From IMG/VR virus record IMGVR_UViG_3300035034_003774: a stretch of 64,000 nucleotides of DNA. The stretch is one strand, 5' to 3'. Under the pieces are notes generated by a model. It did not search any database. It had not been told where the DNA came from and saw only the letters and a list, made by a program, of their open reading frames with translations. Position numbers and translations under genes: made by a program. This document shows, piece by piece, positions 5,145 through 63,782 of this stretch. The DNA is from a virus. Position 1 is the stretch's first letter; each line of letters opens with the position of its first letter.

Positions 5145-5173
5145 GTTATACGCATATTGCGAAAAAATGTTTC
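5145..5173 (-). promoter_or_regulatory. sigma70-like promoter GAAACA-N17-TATAAC upstream of rnr
   Basis: minus-strand reading GAAACATTTTTTCGCAATATGCGTATAAC; member of a repeated promoter family in this window. Confidence 0.5.
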
Positions 5174-5562
5174 TAATTTGGGACTGTGGTGTAATCAATA
5201 CTTCCAATCTCCTTTCCATTGACGATCACTTTATCTTGGTGATCATCATTGACAATCCAGCCTCTATCTTTTAATGTTCTAATCTCTAAATCAAAGCAAG
5301 CAAGAGGCCTGTACTTAAGAATCTCACCATCGAACTTCTTGTCTATAGAGAGTTTTATTAATCCCTTTGTCATATCATCATACCAACCTGGATTTACTAA
5401 ATGAGTCCAGTAATAAACATTAGATAAATGCTGATGAGTCATTCCTTCGAAATTATTAAATCTCTGTCCAGTAAAACTCTGCCAAACAATAGGGTTTTTA
5501 ACACTATATTTTACTAATCTTTCTTTATGCATTTTCTTTCTCTTTTTCTGATTCAACAACAT
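5173..5562 (-). CDS. hypothetical protein
   Basis: ORF, K-rich N-terminus. Confidence 0.3.
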   Translation of the reverse strand: MLLNQKKRKKMHKERLVKYSVKNPIVWQSFTGQRFNNFEGMTHQHLSNVYYWTHLVNPGWYDDMTKGLIKLSIDKKFDGEILKYRPLACFDLEIRTLKDRGWIVNDDHQDKVIVNGKEIGSIDYTTVPN

Positions 5563-7099
5563 TTTCTGCTCTCATCTGAGGGAAAAATAAAACATCCTGA
5601 ATAGAGTCTTGATTAGTTAAAATCATCACAAGACGATCAATTCCGATTCCCAGGCCAGCTGTAGGTGGCATTCCGTACTCAAGGGCTCTTAAGAAATCTT
5701 CATCCAGAGCCATAGCTTCATCATCACCAGCTCCAGCAAGCTTAATTTGTTCCTCAAACCTTTCTCTTTGATCAATTGGGTCATTAAGCTCTGAATAAGC
5801 ATTAGCGATCTCCTTGCCATTGATGATGAGTTCAAATCGTTCAACAAGACCCTCTTCTGTTCTATGCTTCTTAGCCAATGGAGACATCTCAATTGGGTAG
5901 TCATATACAAATGTAGGTTCAATTAACTCAGGCTCCACAAACTCCCCGAAAATTTCATCAAGAAGCTTACCTCTACCCATTGTCTTATCAACATTAAGTC
6001 CTTTTTCTTTACACAAATCAAATAGACCCTGTTCTGTCAAGTTCTTAACATTAACTTGGGCGTATTTTTCAATAGCCTCAAAGAAAGTAATTCTTTCATA
6101 TCTATAAACCATACTGACATCACTTCCATCTTTAGCCTTAAAAGTTCCATGATTTAAAGCCATTGAAGCCACTGACTGAATCAATCTCTCACATACGTCC
6201 ATCATCCACATATAATCTTTATATGCAGCATACATTTCAACTTGAGTAAACTCTGGGTTATGGTATCTGCTCATTCCCTCATTTCTGAAGTCCTTAGCAA
6301 ATTCAAATACTCTTGGGAAACCACCAACTATCAACTTCTTTAGATAAAGCTCATTTGCAATCCTCAAATACAACTCCATATCTAGTTTGTTGTGGTGTGT
6401 CTTAAATGGCTTAGCTGATGCTCCACCATGAACTGATTGAAGTATTGGAGTCTCAACTTCAAGAAAACTACTTGATAAAAGGGAGTCTCTAATTGCTTGA
6501 ACAATCTTTGATCTCTTTATAAAAGTTTTTCTGACTTCTGGATTTACCACAAGATCAACGTACCTCTGACGGTATCTTGCCTCCTTCTTTGTAAAGGCGC
6601 CATGCTCATTTCCATCTTCATCTCTTTTTACCACTGGCAGTGGCTTAACAGACTTTGATAACAGAATCATTTTACTTGCCTTAAGAGTAACTTCTCCAGT
6701 CTTTGTCCTGAACATCTCACCCTCAAAACCAACGTGATCACCAAGATCAAGAAGTTTCTTAAATACCGTATTATACATTGCTTTATCCTCTTCGGGGCAA
6801 ATTTCATCACGCATAACATATACTTGAAGCTGGCCAAAATCATCTTGTATTTTACAAAAAGAAGCCTTACCCATTATGTTTCTCATCATCAATCTACCAG
6901 CAATAATGACTTTCATTGGTACATTTTGTCCAACCTTCTCAACTTTCTCGAAATGACGAATAACTTGAGTTGTTTTCAAATCTTTTTCACGACCCTCAAG
7001 GTACATTTTAAACTCCTCTGCTGGATATGGATTAATACCAAGTTCTCTTAGCTTGTTAAGAGACTCACGTCTAATTACTTCTTGTTCTGATAAACTCAT
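5525..7099 (-). CDS. lysS: lysyl-tRNA synthetase, class II
   Basis: full-length similarity to bacterial LysRS: N-terminal OB anticodon-binding region, class II motifs (FEVETP, HNPEFT, GLGIGIDRLVM). Confidence 0.9.
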   Translation of the reverse strand: MSLSEQEVIRRESLNKLRELGINPYPAEEFKMYLEGREKDLKTTQVIRHFEKVEKVGQNVPMKVIIAGRLMMRNIMGKASFCKIQDDFGQLQVYVMRDEICPEEDKAMYNTVFKKLLDLGDHVGFEGEMFRTKTGEVTLKASKMILLSKSVKPLPVVKRDEDGNEHGAFTKKEARYRQRYVDLVVNPEVRKTFIKRSKIVQAIRDSLLSSSFLEVETPILQSVHGGASAKPFKTHHNKLDMELYLRIANELYLKKLIVGGFPRVFEFAKDFRNEGMSRYHNPEFTQVEMYAAYKDYMWMMDVCERLIQSVASMALNHGTFKAKDGSDVSMVYRYERITFFEAIEKYAQVNVKNLTEQGLFDLCKEKGLNVDKTMGRGKLLDEIFGEFVEPELIEPTFVYDYPIEMSPLAKKHRTEEGLVERFELIINGKEIANAYSELNDPIDQRERFEEQIKLAGAGDDEAMALDEDFLRALEYGMPPTAGLGIGIDRLVMILTNQDSIQDVLFFPQMRAENVVESEKEKENA

Positions 7100-10861: not shown

Positions 10862-11368
10862 CTACTCCGTGAATATGTGAGATACTTTATGCTTAATCTC
10901 TATAATTGCAGTGATTACTTGTTTCATTAAAAAATCTTCATCAACGCAAAACATTTTTGCGGCCTCATTGACAGGTAATGCATCAATTGCAACCGCATTA
11001 TAAAATACCCTGGTCTTAGAAGGTAGTTCCCTGATCATCTCAATCACAACTTCTGTTTGAATATCTTTGTTATGAAGATCAATATTTTCCTTTTTATTGG
11101 ATATAATCCCTGGCCTTACAATGATTTCGTTACAACAGTAATTAACCGCTATAGACCTTGACCACTCTTCAAAATTAGAAGGTATATCACCAGACTTAAG
11201 CTTATTAAATATAGTTATGAATATATTTTCCGTAAACTCCTTAGCTTCTTCCTCGCTTTCGGCGTATCGCATAGATATAGCATGAATCCTTCCATATTTA
11301 GATTTAAACACCTCCTTTTGATAAACTTTATCTCCAGAAGCAGCTTTTTCTAATGTAGAACGATTCAT
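10862..11368 (-). CDS. ECF-type sigma-70 family factor (regions 2 and 4)
   Basis: region-2-like KEVFKSKYGRIHAISMRYAESEEEAKEFTENIFITIFNKL and region-4-like LPSKTRVFYNAVAIDALPVNEAAKMFCVDEDFLMKQVITA. Confidence 0.45.
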   Translation of the reverse strand: MNRSTLEKAASGDKVYQKEVFKSKYGRIHAISMRYAESEEEAKEFTENIFITIFNKLKSGDIPSNFEEWSRSIAVNYCCNEIIVRPGIISNKKENIDLHNKDIQTEVVIEMIRELPSKTRVFYNAVAIDALPVNEAAKMFCVDEDFLMKQVITAIIEIKHKVSHIFTE

Positions 11369-14608: not shown

Positions 14609-14637
14609 GTTATACGCAAAAATAAATAAAATGTTTC
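14609..14637 (-). promoter_or_regulatory. sigma70-like promoter GAAACA-N17-TATAAC
   Basis: minus strand GAAACATTTTATTTATTTTTGCGTATAAC, 27 nt before ATG at 14581. Confidence 0.5.
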
Positions 14638-16443: not shown

Positions 16444-16472
16444 GAAACATTTTCATTTTATTTTCGTATAAT
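16444..16472 (+). promoter_or_regulatory. plus-strand promoter GAAACA-N17-TATAAT
   Basis: TGAAACATTTTCATTTTATTTTCGTATAAT, 21 nt before ATG at 16493. Confidence 0.5.
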
Positions 16473-17085: not shown

Positions 17086-17436
17086 ATGAGCTTTTCAAAA
17101 AATAAGGAAACTGAAATACAGGCTTTGTTTGATGTAATCAAGGAAAAAACTAAAGATAAGTTTGACCTTGATGTCGAAAGCATTGATGATGTGAAAACAA
17201 AATCAAGGAAGAGGCCTCTTGTTTACTTCAGGAAAATGATGATGATCATTCTTGGAGAAACGTATTGCAGTAGCCCTCACAATTATAGCCAGGAAGATAT
17301 AGCAAAAGTCGTCGGAAGAGACAGAACATCGCTAATACATCATAGTAAAATTCACCTTAATGAATACAGTAGGTATAAAGACTATAAGGACGAATATGAC
17401 CAAATCAGAGCGGACTGGGAAAATAAAATTAAATAA
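17086..17436 (+). CDS. DnaA domain-IV-like helix-turn-helix protein
   Basis: KTKSRKRPLVYFRKMMMIILGETYCSSPHNYSQEDIAKVVGRDRTSLIHHSKIH matches the Bac_DnaA_C pattern. Confidence 0.5.
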   Translation: MSFSKNKETEIQALFDVIKEKTKDKFDLDVESIDDVKTKSRKRPLVYFRKMMMIILGETYCSSPHNYSQEDIAKVVGRDRTSLIHHSKIHLNEYSRYKDYKDEYDQIRADWENKIK

Positions 17437-17499
17437 TATTTGGTTTTATATTGAAACTTTTATAATTTTGTAACGTATTTATATACACAAGCATTAATT

Positions 17500-17794
17500 T
17501 GAGAATAACAAATTGTTGTAATGTTAGCACAGGGGTTCGACTCCCCTCAGTTCCACAAAGCAAATAAAAAATGGGGCTGTACTTGGCAATTAGACTGCAT
17601 TAGACCACGGTTTGTTTAGAATTTTATGCTTATCCATAATAAATGGAAATGATTTAACAAAATCTCTTGCCCTTGAGGCAGTCCTCAACAGCGAGAGAGC
17701 TGAAACTACAGCAGTAGCCCCAGTGGCTATGGCAGCGTAGTCAGTACGTGATTTAGAAAGCTCTGGCAAATAATAGTAGCCAGAGCTTTTTTTA
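17500..17794 (+). ncRNA. ssrA: candidate circularly permuted (two-piece) tmRNA (ssrA-like)
   Basis: T-arm AGGGG-TTCGACT-CCCCT (17531-17547) and acceptor 3' strand CAGTTCC + A73 (17548-17555). 18 nt downstream GGGGCTG (17573-17579) pairs with it to give G1-C72, G2-C71, G3:U70, G4:U69, C5-G68, U6-A67, G7-C66 (AlaRS identity G3:U70/A73). GGCAATTAGAC resembles tmRNA GGATTCGAC. GC-richer island with Ala-rich ORF ...AETTAVAPVAMAA-TAG (17699-17740). Terminates in strong hairpin 17761-17794. Start boundary uncertain. Confidence 0.4.
17761..17794 (+). terminator. rho-independent terminator at end of tmRNA-like locus
   Basis: GCTCTGGC-AAATAATAGTA-GCCAGAGC followed by TTTTTTT. Confidence 0.6.
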
Positions 17795-17835
17795 TTTAAA
17801 GTTATTAACATGTTAATAACTTTTTAAAATTTGAT

Positions 17836-17864
17836 TAAACATTTTTCATTTCTCTACGTATCAC
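17836..17864 (+). promoter_or_regulatory. possible promoter TAAACA-N17-TATCAC upstream of sigma factor gene
   Basis: keeps conserved CG before the -10 but the -10 is weak. Confidence 0.3.
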
Positions 17865-17899
17865 ATATAATTAAAATAATAATATAAGAACAGGACAAA

Positions 17900-18781
17900 A
17901 TGAGGCAATTAAAAATTACAAAACAAATCACCAATCGTGAGACACAATCTTTTAGTAAATATCTAACGGAGGTAAACAGTATAGGTGATGTAATTTCTCC
18001 CGAAGAAGAGATAGAGCTAACCAGGAGAATAAAGGAAGGAGATGAGAAGGCTCTTGAGAAACTTGTTACAGCAAATTTAAGATTTGTTATTAGTGTTGCA
18101 AAACAATATGGAAATATGGCACCTCTTCCCGATCTTGTAAATGAAGGGAACTTAGGACTTATCAAAGCTGCTAACAGATTTGATGAGACCAGAGGGTTTA
18201 AGTTTATATCATATGCGGTGTGGTGGATTAGACAATCAATAATGCAATACTTATCAGATCATGGCAAAATGATCAGGCTCCCATCTAATAGAGTAAACAT
18301 GATTCAAAACGTCAGAAAGGCGGATAACTATTTAGAACAATTACTCCAGAGAAAGCCTACTTACTTAGAAATTTCAGAACTATTATCTGAGAAAGACACT
18401 AAGTACACAGAGAAAATGGTGAAGAGTTTAATGAAGAATGATCAAAAAGTTTCTTCAGTAGATGCTCCAATAACAACAAGTGATGAATCTGGAAGCATGC
18501 TAGACCTAATGGAAGGTGATGGAGGTCAGGATGCAGATAAAGTAACCAATAAAAGCGATCTTATGATAGAGGTTGAGAGAACGCTTGATTTATTACCAGC
18601 GAGACAAAAGGAGGTTCTGGTAATGTATTTTGGACTTCTTGGAACTCGTCAATGTAGCCTAGAAGAAATAGGAATTAAATACGATCTCACAAGAGAACGT
18701 GTTAGACAGATAAAAGAAAAAGCTTTAAGAAGAATTAAAGTAATCTCCAGAAATAGCAGCCTTAAAGAATTTATACAATAA
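17900..18781 (+). CDS. rpoD: RNA polymerase sigma factor, short Bacteroidota-type sigma-A (RpoD-like)
   Basis: MRQLKITKQITNRETQSFSKYL N-terminus typical of Bacteroidota sigma-A; regions 2 (YAVWWIRQSI), 3 and 4 (EEIGIKYDLTRERVRQIKEKALRRI). Confidence 0.85.
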   Translation: MRQLKITKQITNRETQSFSKYLTEVNSIGDVISPEEEIELTRRIKEGDEKALEKLVTANLRFVISVAKQYGNMAPLPDLVNEGNLGLIKAANRFDETRGFKFISYAVWWIRQSIMQYLSDHGKMIRLPSNRVNMIQNVRKADNYLEQLLQRKPTYLEISELLSEKDTKYTEKMVKSLMKNDQKVSSVDAPITTSDESGSMLDLMEGDGGQDADKVTNKSDLMIEVERTLDLLPARQKEVLVMYFGLLGTRQCSLEEIGIKYDLTRERVRQIKEKALRRIKVISRNSSLKEFIQ

Positions 18782-21267: not shown

Positions 21268-22386
21268 TTACCTCAAAAATAACTTCTGAGTGTAGCCATG
21301 AATCTTGAGTAAATATATTCCAGGATTAAGCCCTGATACATCTATTTGATTGGATTCTCCACTATCAACCTTTTGCCCCATCATATTATAAAGCTCAAAA
21401 TATTGCTTATCTGAAAAGTAAAAGTGATCATTATCGCCCTCTTTTGTATAGACGTAAAATATCTGTGACTCATTTTCTATAGATATTATATCAAAATATT
21501 CATATTTTCCGTCATAATCAGTCTGCTTAAGTCTATAATAAGAAGTTGAAACAAGGGGCTCTTGATCTATGAATTCGTACTTAATTTCAACACTGCTATT
21601 GCCAGCTCCATCAATTTTTCCAATCTCTTGCCACTTCATTCCAAACTCACTCCTCTCAATAGTGAAGTAGTCATTGTTTCTTTCTGAAGCAGTACTCCAA
21701 TTTAACACATTTACCTCTCCATCGGCGTATCCATCAAAACTAATCAATTCAATTGGCAATGGTGAACAAGTTACCTCACCAATGACTAGATTATCAAAAA
21801 ATGTTTCATCATTCCCTGTTCCGTCCATTCCATCTCCTACAACCACGTCATCTCCAGTATTCCAAAATAAACCTACATTATCAGGGCCATCATTTGACCA
21901 AACAATACTATTATCAACCATCAACATCCCAATTCCGTCACATGGTGTATAAACGAATCTATAACGCCTGTAAGTATCATCATTTGGAATTGAGTAAACA
22001 TTTCCTGAATTGATAGTGTCATTATCCGTTATGTAAGTTACTCTTAATTGACTGAACCCAATAATTTTCAAACTCTCTCCTCTTTCAAAAAAATTACCAG
22101 AGTTTTCTTCTCTACGATAATCAAAAGAAACATCAATCCCACCTACATCGAATGTTGGACTTCCAGGTATAACCATATCTAAATCAGCTTTGGGTAGACC
22201 TGCATTCAATCCATTTGTTCCTCCAGTTCCTCCAGGGCTAGATGTAGCACTAGCAGAGATAGAAGTTGCATTAGGACCAACCGTAGCTACAGTCACAGGA
22301 TTACTATCAAAATCAAACTGACTAATAATTTGTGCGTAATTAAAGGTGGTCATCAATATAAATAATAAACTCAATAATATTTTCAT
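21268..22386 (-). CDS. secreted protein with type IX secretion (Por) C-terminal sorting domain
   Basis: signal peptide MKILLSLLFILMTTFNYAQ; C-terminal ~80 aa ...YRLKQTDYDGKYEYFDIISIE...LYNMMGQKVDS...LNPGIYLLKIHGYTQKLFLR typical of T9SS CTD. Confidence 0.55.
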   Translation of the reverse strand: MKILLSLLFILMTTFNYAQIISQFDFDSNPVTVATVGPNATSISASATSSPGGTGGTNGLNAGLPKADLDMVIPGSPTFDVGGIDVSFDYRREENSGNFFERGESLKIIGFSQLRVTYITDNDTINSGNVYSIPNDDTYRRYRFVYTPCDGIGMLMVDNSIVWSNDGPDNVGLFWNTGDDVVVGDGMDGTGNDETFFDNLVIGEVTCSPLPIELISFDGYADGEVNVLNWSTASERNNDYFTIERSEFGMKWQEIGKIDGAGNSSVEIKYEFIDQEPLVSTSYYRLKQTDYDGKYEYFDIISIENESQIFYVYTKEGDNDHFYFSDKQYFELYNMMGQKVDSGESNQIDVSGLNPGIYLLKIHGYTQKLFLR

Positions 22387-22452: not shown

Positions 22453-22481
22453 ATTATACGTTATAAAACAAATTATGTTAC
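22453..22481 (-). promoter_or_regulatory. sigma70-like promoter GTAACA-N17-TATAAT
   Basis: minus strand TGTAACATAATTTGTTTTATAACGTATAAT; placed immediately after the terminator T-tract. Confidence 0.5.
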
Positions 22482-24202: not shown

Positions 24203-24639
24203 TTATCAGCTTTGCTTTTTTCTATTTCACTTGGAATAACTCTATCCTCAAAAAATTGAAGCATTAGATCATATTGAAACTTCATCGTAACATTAACCTC
24301 CTTTAAGGAATCATTTTTATCCTTAAGTCTTTCGATCTCGTTTTTCATTCCAGCACGCTCTTCAACCTCCTGCTTTATAAACATCCCTGATGTCAAAAGA
24401 GTATCACCAACCTCATGCTTATAGTTCGTATAATAATATGTGGTTCCAGAATAACTTCTTATCTTAACCTCATACTTATACTTATCACTCGTGGAGCATT
24501 GGCCACAATCCTCCTCCTTGACGTCATCGTTAGCATTTACCTGCTCAACTACAAGTGTCTTCTCTATCATGGATACACTATCTTCGCAGGAAGATAAAAC
24601 CACGGCTAATGCACATAAAAATAAAAATTTAAACTTCAT
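24199..24639 (-). CDS. putative lipoprotein
   Basis: signal peptide with LSSC lipobox-like cysteine. Confidence 0.35.
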   Translation of the reverse strand: MKFKFLFLCALAVVLSSCEDSVSMIEKTLVVEQVNANDDVKEEDCGQCSTSDKYKYEVKIRSYSGTTYYYTNYKHEVGDTLLTSGMFIKQEVEERAGMKNEIERLKDKNDSLKEVNVTMKFQYDLMLQFFEDRVIPSEIEKSKADK

Positions 24640-25465
24640 CGTTTTCTGTATTTAATATAGGTTCAGCATCCTCAAAGATAACCTCTGCCTTGTTAGTAAT
24701 TTTGTTAAATATTGGGTATTCTACAACCTTAATCGAACTTCTCTCCTTAACAAGATCAGGATTAGTTCTAGCATGATGTTTTTCAGGAAGGCTATCAAGC
24801 TCTTCAGTTGTAAATGGCTCTGATGTCTTAATTCTTTTCACATAAACACCACGCTTATATTTAACTGGAAGGTCGTTCCAATTAACACCCTCCTCAAGCA
24901 TTAGCTTATCTTGCATCTGAGACCCATTCAACCCATGCAACTGACTGGTAGGGTTACCATGAGAAAAATAACTTTGAGCAAGCATTGAAATACTATTCTT
25001 TACAGCGTCATTCTCACGCCACAATAACTGAACAACTGCATCATGAAGAGTTGGTGTCTGATAGATTCTTGCATCAAATACAGCGTTCTTATTATGATCT
25101 GGAAGAAGCTCTCTCCTTCTGTCATTAAAGAAGTTTACCAACTTACCTGGTAGCTTAGATAAAATCTTCTGCTTCCTACCATCGTGATATATTGAACTCT
25201 TTCTGTCAGGTGAGTACAGAATTAGAGTGATCTCATCGCTCTGTGTGTATCCTACAACCGCATTAGTCTCCTCAACCAAGAATTGAGTGGTTTCAGTCAT
25301 TAATTGATTTAAACCCTCATCAAACGGCTTATCCAAGCCTCTAGTCCATTTACTGAAATTGTTTCCATCCAGTCTAATAATAACTGGTAAGGTGGGAATC
25401 ATTATTTCTGGAGAAAAGTTTTTTTCCAGCCACTTACACCAGTCACCCATTGTTTCGAAATCCAT
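24629..25465 (-). CDS. Thg1-like protein (tRNA-His guanylyltransferase family, 3'-5' nucleotide addition)
   Basis: VIIRLDGNNFSKWTRGL, GYTQSDEITLIL, conserved Thg1 core over ~250 aa. Confidence 0.6.
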   Translation of the reverse strand: MDFETMGDWCKWLEKNFSPEIMIPTLPVIIRLDGNNFSKWTRGLDKPFDEGLNQLMTETTQFLVEETNAVVGYTQSDEITLILYSPDRKSSIYHDGRKQKILSKLPGKLVNFFNDRRRELLPDHNKNAVFDARIYQTPTLHDAVVQLLWRENDAVKNSISMLAQSYFSHGNPTSQLHGLNGSQMQDKLMLEEGVNWNDLPVKYKRGVYVKRIKTSEPFTTEELDSLPEKHHARTNPDLVKERSSIKVVEYPIFNKITNKAEVIFEDAEPILNTENDEV

Positions 25466-26919: not shown

Positions 26920-26948
26920 ATTATACGCTACAAATATAATAATGTTAC
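26920..26948 (-). promoter_or_regulatory. sigma70-like promoter GTAACA-N17-TATAAT
   Basis: minus strand TGTAACATTATTATATTTGTAGCGTATAAT, immediately after the terminator T-tract. Confidence 0.5.
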
Positions 26949-37243: not shown

Positions 37244-37830
37244 TTATATTCGCTTAAAACAACTATTGTTATCGAAAAAATATCTTTAAAGGACTCTGGG
37301 TTAATAAACTTCCCAGTCATTGGATGAACGCATTCATTTGATTCAAATAGGTCCTTAATTTCTTCATCCTCTAACATACATCCATGCATATCAAATTCAT
37401 CAATACCAAACTCTATTTTAACCTTTCCCTCCTTACTGAGCTTGTGGTTAAATATCTTTTTAGCCATTTCCATTTGATCTTCAAACGTACTAATATTAAA
37501 GAGCTTTCCATACCTTGATGCTGTCAAGTAGGTATTGTTTTTATTATGCTTATTGTCATCATAAATGTACTGAAGAGTGTGTTCAAAATCCATTTTAGAA
37601 ACCTCTTCTACACTTAGTTTTTTATTCCAAGAAAGCCAGTCTTTACCAAATTTGTTTTCCATGAATTTTCTTATCTCCTCCTGAGCTCCTCGCATCTTAA
37701 GGCACAGTTCTCTGAGTTCATCATCCTGTATGCCCTCCAATTCCATGTAATCCAAAACGGCATAGTCAGGACCCTCATTTCTCATGATGTTCCTGACCTG
37801 CTCGTTTGTATATGTAATATCTTTAGACAT
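37240..37830 (-). CDS. hypothetical protein
   Basis: 196-aa ORF. Confidence 0.3.
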   Translation of the reverse strand: MSKDITYTNEQVRNIMRNEGPDYAVLDYMELEGIQDDELRELCLKMRGAQEEIRKFMENKFGKDWLSWNKKLSVEEVSKMDFEHTLQYIYDDNKHNKNNTYLTASRYGKLFNISTFEDQMEMAKKIFNHKLSKEGKVKIEFGIDEFDMHGCMLEDEEIKDLFESNECVHPMTGKFINPESFKDIFSITIVVLSEYK

Positions 37831-38558
37831 TACCTTTTCTTAGCTCTGGTAAGTATTCTGTCAACACAACCATAGTCTTTCGCCTCTCTTGCGGTCATCC
37901 AATAGTCACGATCACAATCCTCCTCAATCTTATCATACTTTTGACCTGTGTGCTTAGCAATAAGCTCATATAACTCCTTCTTAAGTTTCATGATCTCACG
38001 AGCAGTAATCTCTATATCAGATGCCTGACCTTGAGCTCCACCAAGTGGTTGATGCTGCATAAACCTTGCATGAGGAAGAGAACATCTCTTACCATCAGTT
38101 CCAGCACAAGCAAGAACGTAAGCCATTGATGCTGCTATTCCTGTATTTACAGTTGCAATGTCAGAGCTAACATACTGCATTACATCATATATACCAAGAC
38201 CAGCGTATACACTACCTCCTGGTGAATTAATATAGAATGTGATGTCACTACTTGTGTCTATAGACTCAAGGTATAGCATCTGTGCATTTACAATGTTAGC
38301 CACCATATCATCAATCCCTGTACCAAGGAAGATGATTCTATCCATCATTAGCCTTGAGAAGACATCCATCGCTACGGCATGCATTTGTCTTTCTTCAATA
38401 ATATTTGGTGTCATAGCAAAAGGTGTTTGCGCTATTGATTGTGGCATAAACACATTGTTGTTTATGATTTTTGAATATCTATCAAGTGTTAAACTTGAGA
38501 TTCCTTTGTCTTTCGCAAATAGCTGAAAGTCTTTTGACATACTCTTAGTATCCTTCAT
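37830..38558 (-). CDS. clpP: ATP-dependent Clp protease proteolytic subunit
   Basis: FYINSPGGSVYAGLGIYDVM...GIAASMAYVLAC...FMQHQPLGG (Ser-His-Asp triad context); ~45-aa N-terminal extension. Confidence 0.85.
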   Translation of the reverse strand: MKDTKSMSKDFQLFAKDKGISSLTLDRYSKIINNNVFMPQSIAQTPFAMTPNIIEERQMHAVAMDVFSRLMMDRIIFLGTGIDDMVANIVNAQMLYLESIDTSSDITFYINSPGGSVYAGLGIYDVMQYVSSDIATVNTGIAASMAYVLACAGTDGKRCSLPHARFMQHQPLGGAQGQASDIEITAREIMKLKKELYELIAKHTGQKYDKIEEDCDRDYWMTAREAKDYGCVDRILTRAKKR

Positions 38559-39267: not shown

Positions 39268-40110
39268 TTATATCCCAAGGCCTTCTTCTATTACAAAACT
39301 TTTTTCTTGCAATATCATAGAAGTATATGCTATGTGAGGCATTTTGCTACTTATGTTAGAAATTTGGTTTTCGTTATGGTGATAAGTTAGCAGGTTTTTA
39401 AACTTTTGCTTAACTGGCTCCAGAAGCTCAAAATTACAATGAGGGTTCTGATCATGAACAAGATCAGTCATATCATGAAATATGAATACATTATCTGGCT
39501 TTTCATAAACAAATGAATAATCCTCTTCTGGCATAAGATCAGTTATAGGAACATTAATATCCCCACTATATATCACAACAGCATAGTCATCCTTAGTCTG
39601 AATATGAAATAACAACCCAGAATTAGGGAAATTATTAACTGGCCAATGGTGAGCTGATGTATCTATCTTTGTGATGCTTATGTTCTCATCTTCAAGAAAC
39701 ACATTCACTTCATTTATTACATACTGATCATGAGGGTGTCCGCAAATATCAAGATACTGCCTAACTCTATCAGACACATTCTTATGACACTCTATGACTG
39801 TTGTTTTATTATGAATAAAAAACCTGTCATATATCAAAGTGCTAAGTCCATTAATGTGATCTTCATGAGTATGAGTTATAAAAACCCTATCAATACTATC
39901 TAAGAGATTTGATTTTCTAAGTTTAGAATAAGCAGTATATCCACAATCAATTAAAAACCTCATTCCGCCATTTGTTGTAAAAAGAGCACTTGCTGTGCCT
40001 TCTTCTGTATCAAAAGCTCCTCCTATACCAAGAAATTCTACTTGTAAAATTTTGTTGCCACTTGGTTTTAAAGCTGCGTCAATACCTTTCCTAATACTAA
40101 TCTTAGACAT
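39268..40110 (-). CDS. metallo-beta-lactamase fold hydrolase (RNase Z / nuclease-like)
   Basis: FITHTHEDH (HxHxDH) zinc motif. Confidence 0.5.
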   Translation of the reverse strand: MSKISIRKGIDAALKPSGNKILQVEFLGIGGAFDTEEGTASALFTTNGGMRFLIDCGYTAYSKLRKSNLLDSIDRVFITHTHEDHINGLSTLIYDRFFIHNKTTVIECHKNVSDRVRQYLDICGHPHDQYVINEVNVFLEDENISITKIDTSAHHWPVNNFPNSGLLFHIQTKDDYAVVIYSGDINVPITDLMPEEDYSFVYEKPDNVFIFHDMTDLVHDQNPHCNFELLEPVKQKFKNLLTYHHNENQISNISSKMPHIAYTSMILQEKSFVIEEGLGI

Positions 40111-40167: not shown

Positions 40168-41376
40168 TTATACTTTATCTACAAGGAAAAGTCCAAGTGT
40201 TTTCATACCAAGTTCTAAATCCTCCTTCAATGTACTGAACATCACTTCATTTTCTGGATTTCCCTTGATCTGATGAGTTTCATAAAGCTTGTTAATCTTC
40301 TTGCAATAATCTATGAGCGCATTAAACAATATATTTGGCTGAAGGTTATATAAAGACTTCATATATGCATATTGAAGCTCTGTACTATTGAATTTATCAA
40401 CCTTCATTGCTCGAACTCCAGCGGAAGTTAATCGTGCAAGCGTGTAAGAAACATATAAGCCTGGAGAATTTTTGGCATTATCAATTAACTCTACATTAAC
40501 CTTCTTATCTTTAGATGGGTCCACCTTAAGTATAAAACCAGCTAGAACATTATAAGAAAGATCATAATCGTTATCAAACTTATCAAGACAATCCTTTAAT
40601 ATATCATCAAAATAAATAACATTTCCATCACGACTTGACATTTTAAGCTCTTTAACTTCTCCGTCTTCTGGGTCTTTCTTCATCACCTTAACAAGACCAA
40701 GCCCAATGTGGTTTGTCAATGGACAAATCTTTTTAAGCATATTAAAATGACCATTCTGTTCGTTTCCAGTTAAATATAATGTTGGAGCATTTAGCTTGTC
40801 TGCAAGTGCTACATCTTGATACAAATAACTACTTGAGCCATCACTCTTAACTCCAACTACTTTCTCATCCCCTATGTGAAACACTTGAGTGCCTTCATAG
40901 CTACCTTCTCCTGGCTTTAACAAACTTCCTTTGTACTCCATAGAAGAAGCATAATAAACATCACTTACATGCAGATCGAATGTATCACAATAAGTTCTAT
41001 ACATATGATATGCTTCATGCTTTTCTACATCTCCTTCTAAAGTATCTCCAAGAATGGATATAAACTTATCAGCAACTCCCATTGACTGAAGTGTCTTGGC
41101 TATAATGAAATTGGACATATGCCCAATGTGTAAGTGCTTATTAAGATTTGGGCTAAAACCATCACAATACTTATATTGAGAGAATTTCTCAAAACACTCA
41201 GAAATATCAAAGTTTTTTGGAACCAATATGTTTGTGTACGGAGAACTGTCTTCAAGACGAAAACCCCAGGACTCAGCCCAGTCTTTAATTTCACTGTTGG
41301 GCTTACCATATACGCAGAATCCGAATTCACCATCTCCAGGTATAACTCGAATGTTATTTATGTTTATTTTCTTCAT
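40168..41376 (-). CDS. class I aminoacyl-tRNA synthetase, arginyl-tRNA synthetase-like (truncated N-terminus)
   Basis: HIGH motif (LHIGHMSNF), KMSSRDG (KMSKS-like), C-terminal NSPGLYVSYTLARL resembling the ArgRS DALR anticodon-binding domain. Confidence 0.5.
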   Translation of the reverse strand: MKKININNIRVIPGDGEFGFCVYGKPNSEIKDWAESWGFRLEDSSPYTNILVPKNFDISECFEKFSQYKYCDGFSPNLNKHLHIGHMSNFIIAKTLQSMGVADKFISILGDTLEGDVEKHEAYHMYRTYCDTFDLHVSDVYYASSMEYKGSLLKPGEGSYEGTQVFHIGDEKVVGVKSDGSSSYLYQDVALADKLNAPTLYLTGNEQNGHFNMLKKICPLTNHIGLGLVKVMKKDPEDGEVKELKMSSRDGNVIYFDDILKDCLDKFDNDYDLSYNVLAGFILKVDPSKDKKVNVELIDNAKNSPGLYVSYTLARLTSAGVRAMKVDKFNSTELQYAYMKSLYNLQPNILFNALIDYCKKINKLYETHQIKGNPENEVMFSTLKEDLELGMKTLGLFLVDKV

Positions 41377-42486: not shown

Positions 42487-43056
42487 TTATTTTTTTAATA
42501 GTTCATCAGCCTTTTCTTTAACGACTTTCATATCAACTTCAAGACCCTTAAATCCTCCCATGATCTTACCAATGTGGTTCGCACCCCCATCAACTAACTC
42601 CTGTAACTTAGCATCAATTTCCTGCTCAGTCATTTGCTTTGGAAGATAAGATTGAACCACTTCAAGCTCCATTTCTTCATTCCAGTCTTGTGGTGGAAAA
42701 TCCTTTGAAGCATTTGCATCAATAACACTCATAAGAGATTTCTCAAACTTCTTTAAAACTTTAATAACCTCTTCATCAGAAGGTTCTTTAGAATCTTTTG
42801 TAGCATCCCCCTTAACAAGTCCAAGGAAGTTCTTCTTTTCCATTTTCTTCGCTTTGAAAGCGTCGATGAAATCTTTGTTTATTTTTTCAATTAAAGTTGA
42901 CATATGTTTTTTATTTAAAGCGAATTTAATACAAAATTTGGTATCTGCAAAATTATTTATTTGAAATGTTTTTGCCATCAATACGTCTTTGAATGGTGAA
43001 CTCTCTCTTTCCACCGCAGAACTTACTCCACTGCTTACTTCCAATAAGTTCTTCAA
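42487..43056 (-). CDS. GatB/YqeY-domain protein
   Basis: C-terminal ...VQSYLPKQMTEQEIDAKLQELVDGGANHIGKIMGGFKG resembles the YqeY/GatB C-terminal domain. Confidence 0.45.
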   Translation of the reverse strand: MKNLLEVSSGVSSAVERESSPFKDVLMAKTFQINNFADTKFCIKFALNKKHMSTLIEKINKDFIDAFKAKKMEKKNFLGLVKGDATKDSKEPSDEEVIKVLKKFEKSLMSVIDANASKDFPPQDWNEEMELEVVQSYLPKQMTEQEIDAKLQELVDGGANHIGKIMGGFKGLEVDMKVVKEKADELLKK

Positions 43057-43322: not shown

Positions 43323-44456
43323 TTATTCATCATTCCAGCAATGACATCCATGATCTGCGTTATGACATGAACTACACACTCCAATAGATACGTTAATTAT
43401 TTTCCTTCTTTGAGAATCGTTAAGTCCTGGTACGTTTTCTTTTAATTGATCATAGAAGTATCTATAATCAGAAAACATTTCATCCATTGTTATTTCTCCC
43501 TCTGGGATGTATTGCTCAGCAATAGAATCATCTTCTTCTGCCCATACAGCAACTTCCCCATCATTCATAAACATAAGGTCCCTTCGATCAATAGGTTCTT
43601 TTAAAACAAGTTTTTTAAAGTACTTAAAGAACTTACTTCCTGGAACCTTAAATAGAGTGTCATGCTTTTCAGATAATCCACCCATTTTAGTCTGGTAGAT
43701 AGTCTGTACGCACATACCCCTTCCAAAGCCTTCATTCTTAAATACTTTGTAATGAGTAGGCATACCTATCATTTCATTTTTAATAATGTTTCCAATGGCG
43801 CTATTAATTATTTGAATTCTATTTACAGCAATCTTATGATCTGGTCTTAGCTTCAAAATTAATTCATCATGAGAAATAAAAACAAAATCATCCTCCTCAA
43901 AATCATAATCATCAATAAGAGCGTTAACAATTTTGATAATATTGCTATGCTGCCTTCTCTGGAGTCTCTTTGGATTTGTATTACCAAATACATACTGCCT
44001 AAATGACTTAGACTTAGAGAGAGTGTGATGAATATCAAGGTCCCTACACAGTCCCTCCCAAGAATCTCCAAGAGCATCAGAAGAATCAAATGTCTTTAAT
44101 GCATTATAATTAGCAGACTTAAAGTCAATAGAAATAAGATAGGTATTATCGTTATTTCTAAGATCATCCTTAGTCCTAAGTTTATCTGGCAAACTCCAGT
44201 CCATAAGATTCTTATATGCTTCAGAATTTACAAGGTAATCCTTCATTCTTGGAAGTGCATACTCAAGCTTGTATGACTTAGCGCTCTTATAGCCAAGTTC
44301 TTCACAATCCCTCTCGTATTGCTCATATTCTTTTACGAGATTTGGAAGGCCTGCATAAAAAGAGTCTCTAGCCAAGGTATCAATATAATACTGGGCATGC
44401 TCCTTTACAGGTATGTTTACCTTAAATAATTTTTGAAATTCTGTTAAATCTTTCAT
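43323..44456 (-). CDS. hypothetical protein with C-terminal Cys/His cluster
   Basis: CSSCHNADHGCHCWNDE tail. Confidence 0.3.
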   Translation of the reverse strand: MKDLTEFQKLFKVNIPVKEHAQYYIDTLARDSFYAGLPNLVKEYEQYERDCEELGYKSAKSYKLEYALPRMKDYLVNSEAYKNLMDWSLPDKLRTKDDLRNNDNTYLISIDFKSANYNALKTFDSSDALGDSWEGLCRDLDIHHTLSKSKSFRQYVFGNTNPKRLQRRQHSNIIKIVNALIDDYDFEEDDFVFISHDELILKLRPDHKIAVNRIQIINSAIGNIIKNEMIGMPTHYKVFKNEGFGRGMCVQTIYQTKMGGLSEKHDTLFKVPGSKFFKYFKKLVLKEPIDRRDLMFMNDGEVAVWAEEDDSIAEQYIPEGEITMDEMFSDYRYFYDQLKENVPGLNDSQRRKIINVSIGVCSSCHNADHGCHCWNDE

Positions 44457-45724
44457 TTATATTTTTTTCTAATGCTTTGATCTAAATAAAAATCTTTCCT
44501 AATCTTAACAAGAGTGTCATTGATGAGTTCTCTTGGAACTTGGTCTGGTAAATCTGAATTATCAAACAAAGTGTCAAGTTCGTTCATTTCTTTTTCAGCC
44601 CAATCAAGTAATTCCTCAAGATCAACCTTACCCTTCCTTACATCAAGAAGCTCCTCACGATTAGGCCTACGAATGGTCATCGTTCCAGTCTCAGCAATTT
44701 CTCTCGCAATCTGTAGCAACCTCTTACAATGCATAAGGTTTTTTCCATCATAACTTTGTCCATGCTCCTTATTATCAACATAGCGCTGCTCATTACGATT
44801 TTCCAACCACGTTTGATAGTTGGAGTAATCCTTACAAGACTTTGTATAAGAATCCTTGTTGTAAATAAGTTGAGTCACTGGCTGCTGACCCTTGGGTATA
44901 GAACTAAGTCTAAGTTGATTTGACTCGGAAGTGCTTTTTCCAACCCCAGTCTTAGAAACTCCTTTATAACCAAGACCCATTGACTTTTTAGCTTCTTTAA
45001 ATATTTTCTTGTTATGCTCTCTATTCTCTTCCGTCTCAAGTTCAGAAAAGCATATATGAGCATCCCAATCATAAAATAAAGCATAAACATCCCTTGCATT
45101 TGGTATTTTTGTGACTCCACAAAACTTCTGCTCCATCCCACAATTGTCAAGATACTTTTTAAGAGACTGTGTGCCGTAACCAGTTTCATCAATTACATAA
45201 CAAAAATCAATCGGCTCCTTTCGGGTAACACGATCACGTTCCCAATTCTGCATCTTATCAAGACCCTTAGCCTTCTGAATTTGCTTTTTAGCATATCCAG
45301 CAAAACTATATCTACATATCTTTGTTAAAAGCTGATCTCTTATATCAACAGCATGCTGATAAGCTTTGTGCTGTGTTATAATACAATCTTCTGGACTATA
45401 AAAAAGCTCAAGAACTGTTGGATTATTGCTATGAGCTAGTTCAAGAAATCTCTTGATTTCAAAACCAGTATAATCAGCATGAACCCTCACTTGATCAGAG
45501 TACTCAAAATCAAGACCATAAATTTTATCTTGCGGAAGGATATAAATAAAGGCTTTATCTACATCTGACTCTGGAGTCGATGTTCCATGAGCCTGAGAGC
45601 CTGTAATGGCTTCAAATAAAATGCAGTCATTATCTTTTAATAAATTATAAAACTCAAGGGCTTTACGCTCCTTGAGTTTCATTTTTTTATTATTATCCTC
45701 CAAATCTTTATTAATTCCTGTCAT
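44453..45724 (-). CDS. Pol-beta superfamily nucleotidyltransferase
   Basis: GSQAHGTSTPESDVDKAFIY = GS-x9-12-DxD NTase signature. Confidence 0.45.
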   Translation of the reverse strand: MTGINKDLEDNNKKMKLKERKALEFYNLLKDNDCILFEAITGSQAHGTSTPESDVDKAFIYILPQDKIYGLDFEYSDQVRVHADYTGFEIKRFLELAHSNNPTVLELFYSPEDCIITQHKAYQHAVDIRDQLLTKICRYSFAGYAKKQIQKAKGLDKMQNWERDRVTRKEPIDFCYVIDETGYGTQSLKKYLDNCGMEQKFCGVTKIPNARDVYALFYDWDAHICFSELETEENREHNKKIFKEAKKSMGLGYKGVSKTGVGKSTSESNQLRLSSIPKGQQPVTQLIYNKDSYTKSCKDYSNYQTWLENRNEQRYVDNKEHGQSYDGKNLMHCKRLLQIAREIAETGTMTIRRPNREELLDVRKGKVDLEELLDWAEKEMNELDTLFDNSDLPDQVPRELINDTLVKIRKDFYLDQSIRKKYK

Positions 45725-45732
45725 AATATTTT

Positions 45733-45761
45733 TTTATACGAAATAATTATTTGGATGTTTC
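45733..45761 (-). promoter_or_regulatory. sigma70-like promoter GAAACA-N17-TATAAA
   Basis: minus strand TGAAACATCCAAATAATTATTTCGTATAAA; -10 lies only 8 nt from the annotated ATG 45724. Confidence 0.45.
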
Positions 45762-45775
45762 AATATATCGAAGAT

Positions 45776-47242
45776 TTAGTTGGTGCTATCCATATCACCC
45801 TTCATAGAGTCTTCATCTGGTCCTCCGACCATTCCGTCTCCATACTCTTCTGAAGGAGCGATTGACTGCTCTGAAGATTTATTCATGTAATCATCTTCAC
45901 ATACTTCCAAATCTTCGTCAACATCTTCTTCCTCCCACAAATCTTCGTCAACATCTTCTTGCTCCGAAAGATCAAAACCAGTTGACTTCTTAACCTCTCC
46001 TTTCAGATTTCCATCCTTAAGGTAATGAGCATTTCTTATTGAGTCTATTGTTTTAAGCTCACTCTTTATCTCACTAATAATCCAATTAACATCGTATTCC
46101 TCGATACCAAGGGTATCAACCTTACGCATTATCTGTCTTACTGCGCTATATACATGCGAACCAGTTAGTTTAGAATTGTAAAATAAATCCACAATCTTAC
46201 TATTAGTAAACATCTCTGCAGATGGGTGATTTTTACCAAACTTAAAGTTATACTTAAGTGACTTCAAGATAATGTTTTTAATATTACCTTTTGTAATAGA
46301 ATCAAAGCTCATGATCTTATCAAAACGCCCTGGTCTCTGAGCTGCAAGGTCAAGCAATTGTATAGAGTTTGTTGTAGCAATAATTCCAACTCCATTAGAA
46401 ATCTTATCAGTACCATCAAGAGCGTCTAAGAATGTTCCAAGTGATCTTGATACTGCTCCCTTGTTTCTTGAACCTAATGATAAATCAATATCATCAAATA
46501 TAATCAAACACGGAGAAAGTAATTCAGCTAACTCAATCTTCTCCTTAAGAGCATCACAAACTACTGTCTTAATAATTGTAACTCCCTGCTTCTTAAGAAT
46601 GTTTGAAATTGCAAGAGTAGACTCTGTTTTACCTGTACCAGGAGTACCGCAGAAAAGGTATCTCATAATATCACCCTTCTTTTCATACAAACCTGTAAAT
46701 AACTGCAGGTCTTGCATGATAGTCTCTGGAAGGTAGATGTCTCCGTAATCTCTTCTCTCAAGCGCTCTAACATCCCAAGCTAACTCATTATAAGGCATTG
46801 TAAAATAAGAACCCTTAAGGTTAGACTGAGCAATTGCACTATAGATGATCTTCTTATAAAGAAACTCAGAGTTAACGTAAGTTGATTTATTTGAAGTAAA
46901 AGATACCTCACTAACCCATTTTCCATCAACCATATATCTTGATAAAACTACAAAAAGAGTAAACTCATCTTTATAGTCCAAAATAATCTTTACGTTGATG
47001 CTTCCACTTGCTCGCTCTGGAAGGTTCTCATCAAATACATTTCTTGAAGAAACGAAGCCTACAACATGCAGGCCTTGCTCTTTTTGTTTTTTCTTGTTGT
47101 CATTTAGAATGTTAAAGTAATCAAACAAGATTTTTAACATTGGGGTATTAATTTTCTGACCCATGCTAACTCTTGACATGTACTCATTCTTTTGCTCAAT
47201 AATCGCTTCTTTTTTGAGCTGATCAAAATTCATGTTTTCCAT
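45776..47242 (-). CDS. AAA+ ATPase with acidic C-terminal repeat tail
   Basis: Walker A GTPGTGKT, Walker B IIFDDID, second region of homology (PGRFD); C-terminal EDVDEDL repeats. Confidence 0.75.
   Translation of the reverse strand: MENMNFDQLKKEAIIEQKNEYMSRVSMGQKINTPMLKILFDYFNILNDNKKKQKEQGLHVVGFVSSRNVFDENLPERASGSINVKIILDYKDEFTLFVVLSRYMVDGKWVSEVSFTSNKSTYVNSEFLYKKIIYSAIAQSNLKGSYFTMPYNELAWDVRALERRDYGDIYLPETIMQDLQLFTGLYEKKGDIMRYLFCGTPGTGKTESTLAISNILKKQGVTIIKTVVCDALKEKIELAELLSPCLIIFDDIDLSLGSRNKGAVSRSLGTFLDALDGTDKISNGVGIIATTNSIQLLDLAAQRPGRFDKIMSFDSITKGNIKNIILKSLKYNFKFGKNHPSAEMFTNSKIVDLFYNSKLTGSHVYSAVRQIMRKVDTLGIEEYDVNWIISEIKSELKTIDSIRNAHYLKDGNLKGEVKKSTGFDLSEQEDVDEDLWEEEDVDEDLEVCEDDYMNKSSEQSIAPSEEYGDGMVGGPDEDSMKGDMDSTN
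45908..45960 (-). repeat. intragenic direct repeat (23-nt unit x2, period 30) encoding duplicated EEDVDEDL
   Basis: caaatcttcgtcaacatcttctt at 45908-45930 and 45938-45960. Confidence 0.6.
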
Positions 47243-56758: not shown

Positions 56759-56763
56759 ATCTA

Positions 56764-56792
56764 TTTATACGTTAATTTTCTAAAATTGTTAC
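56764..56792 (-). promoter_or_regulatory. sigma70-like promoter GTAACA-N17-TATAAA
   Basis: minus strand GTAACAATTTTAGAAAATTAACGTATAAA; -10 only 6 nt from the annotated ATG 56758, supporting a downstream true start. Confidence 0.45.
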
Positions 56793-58351: not shown

Positions 58352-58380
58352 TTTATACGTTGATAAATTAAAAATGTTAC
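58352..58380 (-). promoter_or_regulatory. sigma70-like promoter GTAACA-N17-TATAAA
   Basis: minus strand GTAACATTTTTAATTTATCAACGTATAAA. Confidence 0.45.
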
Positions 58381-58381
58381 T

Positions 58382-59098
58382 TTATCTTCCAGTTTTATCT
58401 GGATTTGCTGGAGTAGTTTTCTTTATTAGCCTTTCAACGTTGTCTGATATGTTATTTTCATCATACTTGCTATTAAGGTGATCTAGTAACTTTTCGTGAT
58501 CTTTTCTTAGAGCTTCATCCTTGTTGTAATTCTTATCAGTCAGGAATGGATTGTACATCTTCTGAATTATCCTTGATACGTTATAAGCATCATCTCCACC
58601 TCTATGAGCAGTACCCTCAAATCCCATGTTCATAAAATTAAGTGCTTGAGAAACTCCAAGGTCAGTGTTTATACCATAAGTAAAACTAAATAAAGGTTTG
58701 ATATTGAAGTGGGTTCTATGAAACGGGTTTCTAATTTTTTTAAGATCACAATCTCTCTGAAACTGATGTTTATCGTACATCCCCCAACTAAACCAAATTC
58801 TATCTCTCGACTTATACTTCTTTTCAAGTATATCACAAGCCTCAGCAAATGAAACACCATGCTCATCAATATAGTCTTGAGTCAATGTTGTAAGCTCTGT
58901 ACAAAAATCGCTAATCTCAGAAAACTCTGGCTTAACAATTATTGTATCCTTAAGAACAATCTCCTTTGTGTTAAAATCAACTCCAGATATTCCTATCTCT
59001 ATTATCTCGTTGTACATACCCTTTGGCGGTCTACCTTTCCAGCAAGTTGCTTCAAGATCAATAACCAGAGCAATGTCTCTTTTCATTTTTCTTCCCAT
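58382..59098 (-). CDS. DEDDh 3'-5' exonuclease (ERI-1 / 3'hExo-like RNase)
   Basis: Exo I ALVIDLEATCW, Exo II WFSWGMYDKHQF, Exo III GTAHRGGDDAYN. Confidence 0.55.
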   Translation of the reverse strand: MGRKMKRDIALVIDLEATCWKGRPPKGMYNEIIEIGISGVDFNTKEIVLKDTIIVKPEFSEISDFCTELTTLTQDYIDEHGVSFAEACDILEKKYKSRDRIWFSWGMYDKHQFQRDCDLKKIRNPFHRTHFNIKPLFSFTYGINTDLGVSQALNFMNMGFEGTAHRGGDDAYNVSRIIQKMYNPFLTDKNYNKDEALRKDHEKLLDHLNSKYDENNISDNVERLIKKTTPANPDKTGR

Positions 59099-63734: not shown

Positions 63735-63782
63735 AAAAAAACCGCTTTCTTTGGTTATACGAAAGCGGTTGTAAAATGTTGC
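63735..63782 (-). promoter_or_regulatory. terminator hairpin with embedded promoter (GCAACA-N17-TATAAC) directly upstream of the gltS-family gene
   Basis: 9-bp stem ACCGCTTTC/GAAAGCGGT (63741-63769) with the -10 TATAAC inside the loop, A-run 63735-63740 abutting ATG 63734, -35 at 63777-63782. Confidence 0.45.

Follow-up and report, generated by a model that had tools for sequence, protein, structure and literature searches.

The question raised by the intergenic segment around positions 17,500-17,794 of IMG/VR virus record IMGVR_UViG_3300035034_003774 is whether a tRNA-like 3' half, which as first noted has no 5' partner upstream of it, belongs to a gene whose parts stand in permuted order. 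An original prediction had read the segment as a circularly permuted (two-piece) transfer-messenger RNA (tmRNA) gene, with the missing acceptor strand located downstream. The stretch analyzed comprises 64,000 nucleotides (nt) of one strand and is referred to here as the window; positions are counted from its first letter. With a probability of about 0.87, we read the locus as a functional ssrA gene in circularly permuted form, carried by a huge-phage-like element, the host of which probably belongs to the Bacteroidota.

To identify the gene, ARAGORN and the Rfam covariance models were applied to the window. ARAGORN, including its permuted model, makes a single call in the 64 kilobases (kb), a permuted tmRNA ("tmRNA*") at 17465-17831 on the + strand with the tag GNDLTKSLALEAVLNSERAETTAVAPVAMAA*, and finds no ordinary tRNA gene anywhere in the window. 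The Rfam family RF04321 (tmRNA_permuted) aligns over its entire length (1-213 of 213) with 37.9 bits and E = 3.9e-6 in E-value mode on 17350-17900, a search of 551 nt, and the 303-nt precursor folds with -91.8 kcal/mol, at z = -4.2 relative to dinucleotide shuffles. Among the clade-specific models, beta_tmRNA gives a local match only, at 28.2 bits (cut-off 84), restricted to the T-arm and the acceptor stem; beyond it, the clade-specific helices and pseudoknots of the alpha, beta and cyano models (RF01849, RF01850 and RF01851) remain unmatched. The sole ARAGORN call, the RF04321 E-value and the fold z-score, together with the same arrangement and compensatory changes in six other loci, place the gene beyond chance, and the predicted identity is thus borne out by gene call, full-length Rfam alignment, co-folding and covariation in homologues.

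The gene is ordered as the 3' strands of helix P2, the T-arm, the acceptor 3' strand and the discriminator A73, followed by a 17-nt spacer and then by the acceptor 5' strand, a D-loop analogue and the P2 5' strands; the remainder of the coding piece holds a resume hairpin, a 31-codon tag frame and a terminator. The individual parts are:

17455-17478, + strand: promoter-like motif AACTTTTATAATTTTGTAACGTAT (class AAC[AT]T-N11-17-CGTAT), with about 8-11 nt between its end and the start of pairing in the RNA
17486-17555, + strand: acceptor piece, from co-folding and covariation, its 5' end placed by promoter spacing and the start of P2d
17489-17494 (P2d), 17496-17500 (P2c), 17507-17516 (P2b) and 17519-17527 (P2a), + strand: P2 strands of the acceptor piece, from co-folding
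17556-17572, + strand: intervening sequence of 17 nt, A-rich, between A73 and G1
17573-17797, + strand: coding piece, from ARAGORN, co-folding and the precursor fold
17573-17579, + strand: acceptor 5' strand GGGGCTG, pairing with 17548-17554
17580-17594, + strand: D-loop analogue, from co-folding
17595-17602 (P2a), 17607-17616 (P2b), 17619-17623 (P2c) and 17626-17631 (P2d), + strand: P2 strands of the coding piece, from co-folding
17633-17647, + strand: small hairpin with the resume codon in its 3' strand, from co-folding
17645-17740, + strand: tag frame from the GGA resume codon to TAG, GNDLTKSLALEAVLNSERAETTAVAPVAMAA*, from ARAGORN and the codon-position pattern
17663-17698 and 17699-17745, + strand: two conserved hairpins within the tag frame, from co-folding and RNAalifold
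17755-17797, + strand: 3' stem-loop with a 13-base-pair (bp) stem, an 11-nt loop AAATAATAGTA and then T7, read as an intrinsic terminator that closes the coding piece at its 3' end

Re-extraction by coordinate recovered the T-arm AGGGG-TTCGACT-CCCCT at 17531-17547, the acceptor 3' strand CAGTTCC at 17548-17554 and the discriminator A at 17555, each where it had been predicted, as well as the D-loop-like element GGCAATTAGAC at 17585-17595 and the terminator hairpin with its T-run at 17755-17797. GGGGCTG (17573-17579) is fully complementary to CAGTTCC, and the stem comprises G1:C72, G2:C71, G3:U70, G4:U69, C5:G68, U6:A67 and G7:C66, that is, G3:U70, G4:U69 and five Watson-Crick pairs, as stated at the outset. 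The two pieces therefore assemble a tRNA-like domain with a 7-bp acceptor stem, G3:U70, A73, a 5-bp T-arm and a 7-nt T-loop. The spacer before GGGGCTG measures 17 nt (17556-17572) rather than the 18 nt first counted, and is presumed to be removed by tRNA-processing enzymes because known permuted tmRNAs lose theirs in this way (PMC11915505). CCA is not encoded, the gene reading CAA after A73 (CAA or CTA in relatives). The GC-rich island described around the coding piece is a real but modest enrichment, at 0.34-0.50 compared with a window mean of 0.348, and 0.50 is reached only at 17650-17749.

Immediately downstream of the tmRNA lies a group-1-like sigma-70 factor gene (17900-18781), and a sigma-factor search of IMG/VR returned 61 loci (designated below by L numbers). 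In L003, L006 and L009, a sub-threshold RF04321 match is found directly upstream of the sigma gene, and in L007 about 630 bases upstream of it; L035 is a duplicate of L009. A metagenome scan added L256, whose sigma factor is 73% identical and which carries both an ARAGORN tmRNA* call and an RF04321 match of 47.4 bits, along with the truncated L257, in which the gene is partly present. Apart from the truncated copy, the gene is thus borne by six other loci, five on IMG/VR contigs and one on a metagenome contig, and in five of these it directly adjoins the sigma gene. The sigma-70 gene lies downstream of the tmRNA in every tmRNA-bearing locus, and a helix-turn-helix gene lies upstream of it in the loci where this side was read (window, L256, L006 and L003). 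The sigma factors of the gene-bearing elements are only 49-73% identical; in L004 and L005, whose sigma factors are 56% identical, the tmRNA gene is absent at the equivalent position. Apart from L256, the closest relative, the homologues score 36.1-39.5 bits with RF04321.

Sigma-factor searches of metagenome and genome collections were dominated by Bacteroidota RpoD and yielded L256 and L257 as the only new members. A loose pattern (GGGGNNG..TTAGAC..AAAYGRNAA) returned 120 loci, mostly random, and a tighter one recovered only L006 and L007 besides L188 and L189, which were rejected as false positives located inside coding regions.

Among the members, the acceptor stem occurs as GGGGCUG/CAGUUCC, GGGGCUG/CAGCUCC, GGGGAUG/CAUCUCC and GGGGGCG/CGCUUCC, so that acceptor positions 4-6 change compensatorily while G3:U70, on whose conservation the prediction had been staked, and A73 are kept in all. 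The intervening sequence ranges from 17 to 201 nt (17, 18, 18, 32, 83 and 201 nt in the six full-length members) and is unconserved. In L009, and identically in L035, the 201-nt intervening sequence (2506-2706) holds a 60-codon open reading frame (ORF) with a lipoprotein-type signal peptide (MKTTKKLLIVLALALGAC...), so that a protein gene lies inside this tmRNA gene, between its two pieces. The T-loops of L003 (CUCGCUA, 2582-2588) and L009 (CUCUAUA, 2486-2492) are non-canonical relative to UUCGAnU.

To define the secondary structure, each acceptor piece, with CCA added, was co-folded with its own coding piece in the six members. A common architecture emerges in five of them, consisting of P1 (7 bp), the T-arm (5 bp), P2a (7-8 bp), P2b (10-12 bp), P2c (5-7 bp) and P2d (3-6 bp). 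In the window, P2a-d amount to about 28 bp, the 45 nt upstream of the T-arm pairing continuously with nucleotides 23-59 of the coding piece. The expected pairing between the pieces, formed by the acceptor stem and P2, is thermodynamically available according to these co-folds, but the partner of the acceptor piece's 5' region is the 5'-proximal region of the coding piece and not its 3' region, as had been supposed. After P2 follows a 3-5 bp hairpin with the resume codon in its 3' strand, the upstream triplet being its exact complement (UCC/GGA, GUC/GAC and GCC/GGC), and then an A-rich open stretch over codons 2-6, two in-frame hairpins, the second enclosing the stop codon, and the terminator.

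Members with long intervening sequences were misaligned by MAFFT, and these sequences were trimmed before alignment. Applied to the six trimmed sequences, RNAalifold shows compensatory change in 19 of 37 pairs, supporting the acceptor stem, the T-arm, the four-part P2 joining the pieces and the terminator. A covariance model built on the four best-aligned members (R1) scores 158-184 bits within the family (173.5 bits on window 17485-17659) and 26-60 bits on other phage permuted tmRNAs; it failed to span the 201-nt spacer of L009 and gave only 23 bits for L003. In a 12-sequence alignment of phage permuted tmRNAs, 94.3% of cells pair, compared with 68.6% in shuffles and 42-50% when partners are slid by 1-3 columns, with both-sided changes in 32 of 43 pairs and G3:U70 in 12 of 12; P2 helices 1-4 are 90-94% paired and 24 of their 26 pairs are compensatory. 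Fitting this alignment to R1 somewhat inflates the pairing, but a genuine covariation signal is indicated by both the slid controls and the independent co-folds.

The tag frame possesses a resume codon, an Ala-rich or hydrophobic C-terminus and a stop codon. Its end at AETTAVAPVAMAA-TAG (stop 17738-17740) was correctly recognized from the outset, although the frame is longer than then thought, spanning 31 codons (17645-17740). TAG is in use as a stop within the window (TAA 41, TGA 13, TAG 7). In the three gapless members (window, L256 and L006), differences at codon positions 1/2/3 number 6/3/15, 8/7/17 and 6/6/12, and 9 of 17, 6 of 18 and 6 of 15 changed codons are synonymous, with 0-1 in shifted frames. 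The K-S-L-A motif is kept in L007 and L003 despite the codon switches UCU->AGC and CUU->UUA. Translated in the same frame, the sequences preceding the resume codon give unrelated peptides in the different homologues, conservation beginning at the resume codon itself, and the A at position -4 is invariant. Judged by this codon pattern, the 29-31-codon frame is protein-coding. Tags of the family are 29-31 residues long, start with G/D-K/N and end mostly in MAA, IAA or AAA, that of the window in AMAA. A shorter tag beginning at GCU (AETTAVAPVAMAA) was considered and rejected, since protein-level conservation, including KSLA and its codon switches, extends upstream to the resume codon called by ARAGORN.

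Several observations weigh against a functional permuted tmRNA. At gathering thresholds, Rfam reports no match in the whole window: the covariance check delivered the full-length alignment, but its 37.9 bits fall short of the curated RF04321 threshold of 47 bits, a value reached by one of the six full-length members (L256). ARAGORN calls three of these six (window, L007 and L256) and misses three of the five relatives. The tag is three times the usual length, the modal tmRNA tag having 10 residues in a 2025 census (PMC11915505), and the tags of L007 and L009 end in ELA and ELV, not AA. L003 lacks the P2a-c pairing, although P1, the T-arm, a terminal 7-bp helix (identified by eye) and the downstream hairpins are retained. 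The interval of only 13 nt between P2d and the resume codon leaves no room for pseudoknot PK1, and structure prediction places this codon within a hairpin; equivalents of PK2-4 were not seen, no pseudoknot-specific prediction having been run. PK1 is typical of tmRNA, although not universal. An SmpB-like ORF was not matched in the 64-kb window with an E. coli SmpB query, so that activity would depend on the host factor. The low RF04321 score is explained by divergence from a seed that contains alpha, beta and cyano genes only (PMC11915505).

The same observations could be accommodated by a tmRNA-like decoy that titrates host SmpB or alanyl-tRNA synthetase (AlaRS) to block trans-translation, its apparent tag frame being untranslated, for which the mycobacteriophage DS6A gene offers a model. 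A phage molecule consisting of the tRNA-like domain (TLD) only and inhibiting tmRNA is on record (PMC4131195, PMC11915505), and such a role would be in keeping with a window that encodes no SmpB, with the missing PK1 and with a resume codon held within a hairpin. We nevertheless consider a decoy improbable in view of the third-position excess, the synonymous switching and the intact stop in all six or seven homologues, and of conservation that starts exactly at the resume codon, which would be unexpected for an untranslated segment.

Capture from a bacterium with a two-piece tmRNA (Alphaproteobacteria, some Betaproteobacteria or Cyanobacteria), the gene persisting as a passenger or decaying pseudogene, would account for the fact that only permuted Rfam families match (RF04321 and, locally, beta_tmRNA). 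The scores lie far under those of genuine alpha, beta or cyano members, however, and the position upstream of the sigma gene, the intact helices and the tag are maintained across elements with sigma factors 49-73% identical; moreover, the nearest cellular relatives of the neighboring sigma factor are all Bacteroidota. This origin is accordingly very unlikely.

An ordinary small protein gene, initiated normally beside a chance tRNA-like fold, is suggested by the 42-codon TTG ORF listed at 17612-17740, whose frame is under protein-level constraint. Its part upstream of the resume codon is unconserved, however, as is the start codon, and this part overlaps covarying RNA helices, which renders the explanation highly improbable. 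Finally, the alternative that a tRNA or tmRNA 3' fragment serves as an attachment-site (att) core for integration, with a fortuitous GGGGCTG downstream, draws on the common use of such 3' halves as att sites (PMC11915505) and on host-type one-piece tmRNAs (GENNYALAA tags), probably prophage ends, found in our viral-contig scan, but it is rejected with near certainty because the two acceptor strands covary across homologues, conservation extends over the entire coding piece, and the window ORFs screened with Pfam contain neither an integrase nor a recombinase domain.

For the permuted tmRNA, a mechanism can be proposed whose steps are drawn from established permuted-tmRNA biology (PMC11915505; PMC9004378). 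A single precursor of ~310 nt would be transcribed from the phage-type promoter (motif 17455-17478), cleaved by RNase P 5' of G17573 and cut by a 3'-processing nuclease after A17555, and CCA would be added enzymatically to the acceptor piece because the gene reads CAA. The resulting ~73-nt and ~225-nt RNAs would be held together by the 7-bp acceptor stem and ~28 bp of P2, charged by host AlaRS via G3:U70 and A73 and, with host SmpB and EF-Tu, would enter ribosomes stalled on broken mRNAs. Translation would resume at GGA (17645), appending alanine and the 31-residue tag ending in AMAA, with release at TAG, and the tagged protein would be passed to proteases of the Clp type, perhaps with the element's own ClpP among them. 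The gain would probably be that ribosomes are kept free while mRNAs and tRNAs are cut during infection, by host defenses or phage nucleases, a role suggested by the surrounding set of RNA-repair and translation genes.

Transcription of the precursor would start at a motif whose class occurs 13 times in the window compared with 3.5 expected from shuffles, the copies lying mostly just upstream of ORF starts, including that of the sigma gene (17838-17861). The motif also precedes the tmRNA in L256, L006, L007 and L003. From this distribution, we infer that the 17455-17478 copy acts as a promoter, and the sigma factor that the element itself encodes may recognize the motif, which we take to be unlike the Bacteroidota -33/-7 consensus. 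In the form (T/G)nAACAT(T)-N14-CGTATAA, it occurs on both strands and precedes the sigma gene in L003, L004, L006, L007, L256 and L257. Copies are located as follows:

5148-5171, 14612-14635, 16446-16469, 17455-17478, 17838-17861 and 22456-22479, both strands: promoter-like motif copies
26923-26946, 45736-45759, 58355-58378 and 63757-63780, both strands: further promoter-like motif copies

At the other end of the gene, the hairpin at 17755-17797 was missed by a simple terminator scan because its loop has 11 nt. The terminator stem covaries in all six homologues, and the loop is conserved as GAAnnAnAGTA, that of the window (17769-17779, GAAcAAUAGUAa) recurring at the same position in L256, L006, L007, L003 and L009. 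A conserved loop on a varying stem may mean that the hairpin does more than end transcription, for example by binding a protein or making a tertiary contact; pairing of the loop with the D-loop analogue was looked for and proved inconsistent across members.

We take the window to be part of a huge-phage-like element with a host among the Bacteroidota. Among cellular proteins, all of the closest matches to the sigma factor are RpoD proteins of Bacteroidota (50-55% identity along the entire length), and a nuclease of 647 residues shares 43-47% identity with proteins encoded by two uncultured phages, LR745206 and LR756502 (634-642 kb). Window ORFs match PHROG families. No virion gene is present in the 64-kb window, so that the element is called a phage on the strength of its IMG/VR relatives and the PHROG matches. 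A megablast search of 12 kb against 50,697 phage records returned no match. The genes of the neighborhood that bear on RNA metabolism, translation and host assignment are:

24629-25465, 44453-45724, 54038-58093, 58382-59098 and 60094-60639: RNA-repair genes, including RNase T-like exonucleases
5525-7099, 40168-41376, 42487-43056 and 39268-40110: lysyl-tRNA synthetase, arginyl-tRNA synthetase-fragment-like, YqeY/GatB-like and metallo-beta-lactamase (MBL)-fold proteins
21268-22386 and 10862-11368: type IX secretion (Por_Secre_tail) protein and a weak second sigma-70 region-2-like ORF

The RNA-repair set comprises Pnkp (kinase/phosphatase/ligase), a Hen1 methyltransferase, an RlaP nucleotidyltransferase, a Tpt1/KptA 2'-phosphotransferase and a Thg1-like 3'-5' polymerase, and the window also encodes DnaJ and two RNase T-like exonucleases. 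Such a dense set suggests a defense against host toxins that cleave tRNA or mRNA. The lysyl-tRNA synthetase is full-length (654 bits). At 62 bits (cut-off 252), the MBL-fold protein weakly resembles the N-terminal portion of RNase Z, the type of enzyme needed for trimming a CCA-less acceptor piece. The type IX secretion sorting domain is a hallmark of the Bacteroidota.

Two candidates for proteolysis are encoded, a true ClpP at 37830-38558, which scores 276 bits with NF001368 (cut-off 249) and does not pass the prohead-protease model, and a Cdc48/PAN/FtsH-like AAA+ ATPase at 45776-47242. The contigs of L003 and L006, which bear the tmRNA, also carry ClpP homologues (81% and 72% identical; L416 and L418), separated from the tmRNA by about 17-20 kb, a distance similar to that in the window. 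Such an arrangement is compatible with a connection between tagging and degradation, although it is no proof of one. We entertain only tentatively, as an unlikely extension of the permuted-tmRNA reading, the idea that the gene belongs to a phage lineage of its own, long resident in these elements, of two-piece tmRNAs devoid of pseudoknots. The conserved tag of 29-31 residues would in that case exceed a general degron and be a phage-specified address, directing rescued polypeptides to the element's own proteolysis (ClpP, perhaps with the Cdc48/PAN-like AAA+ ATPase), and a virus-encoded tag-and-degrade system would operate alongside the RNA-repair genes.

A long tag under protein-level constraint suggests that such elements take over ribosome rescue during infection, a direction in which the nearby ClpP, lysyl-tRNA synthetase, Pnkp/Hen1, Tpt1 and Thg1-like genes also point. 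Because the Rfam threshold is reached by one of six members and ARAGORN finds three of six, tmRNA genes of this kind are under-annotated.

The record of phage tmRNAs goes back to the mycobacteriophage Bxz1 group and to Bacillus phage G (PMC4131195), and huge phages have been reported with tmRNA and SmpB (PMC7162821). The permuted form had initially been thought rare in viruses, which is contradicted by a survey in which 53 of 133 unique phage tmRNAs, mostly marine, are predicted to be two-piece (PMC9004378) and by our own pattern scan of IMG/VR, which found eleven further permuted genes in fourteen loci, some of them duplicates (L093, L194, L196, L197, L198, L206, L223, L229, L231, L243 and L253), all above the RF04321 threshold at 53-70 bits. 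In blastn, the tmRNA gene of the window yields only T-arm-sized matches to other phage tmRNAs.

RF04321 merges the alpha (RF01849), beta (RF01850) and cyano (RF01851) families, and the window gene shares with it the order of acceptor piece, intervening sequence and coding piece, the G3:U70 pair, A73, the T-arm, a multi-part P2 joining the pieces and a tag frame after P2. It differs by its score (37.9 versus 47 bits), by the absence of space for PK1, by not forming the hairpin that the model places after P2, and by the tag of the present family, with 29-31 residues compared with the modal 10 (PMC11915505).

The phage two-piece tmRNAs of Methylophilales phage Melnitz, pelagimyophages and cyanophages (PMC9004378), together with our IMG/VR examples, are likewise virus-borne and permuted, have the acceptor sequences CATCTCC-A-CAAAG/GGGGATG in common, and covary in the shared helices. 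Their tags are mostly shorter, with 9-15 residues (25 in L231) as opposed to 29-31 in the present family, and the glutamine riboswitch context of the phage genes has no equivalent at the window locus, where Rfam finds none. Hosts in the literature are marine Proteobacteria and cyanobacteria, while the present family is tied to the Bacteroidota. In the intervening sequences of L196 (3675-3748, - strand) and L231 (4787-4860, - strand), a complete tRNA gene (70 bits) is nested, the normal processing of which would free both tmRNA pieces together; RAGATH-22 RNA (125 bits) and DUF805b motifs lie near other phage permuted tmRNAs (L206, 1474-1674; L196, L198 and L229).

For the Bacteroidota themselves, the 2025 census lists 24,380 tmRNA genes of the standard form and only 48 permuted ones. 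Their one-piece tmRNA, with tags such as GENNYALAA, GNEEYALAA and GESNYAMAA, shares a Gly resume codon (Asp also occurring in the present family) and an Ala-rich end, but is unpermuted, carries a 9-residue tag and matches the standard models; presumably, the host itself relies on this form, with SmpB and AlaRS in common. Mycobacteriophage DS6A likewise carries, in its TLD-only gene, a tRNA-like domain of alanine identity (PMC4131195), although this gene has no tag frame, whereas that of the window gene is conserved as coding. The present clade is a divergent addition to the documented virus-borne two-piece tmRNAs, with ties to huge phages of the Bacteroidota type, in whose hosts tmRNA is one-piece, and is distinguished by sub-threshold Rfam scores, the lack of room for PK1, a long, structured and constrained tag, and its association with the Bacteroidota.

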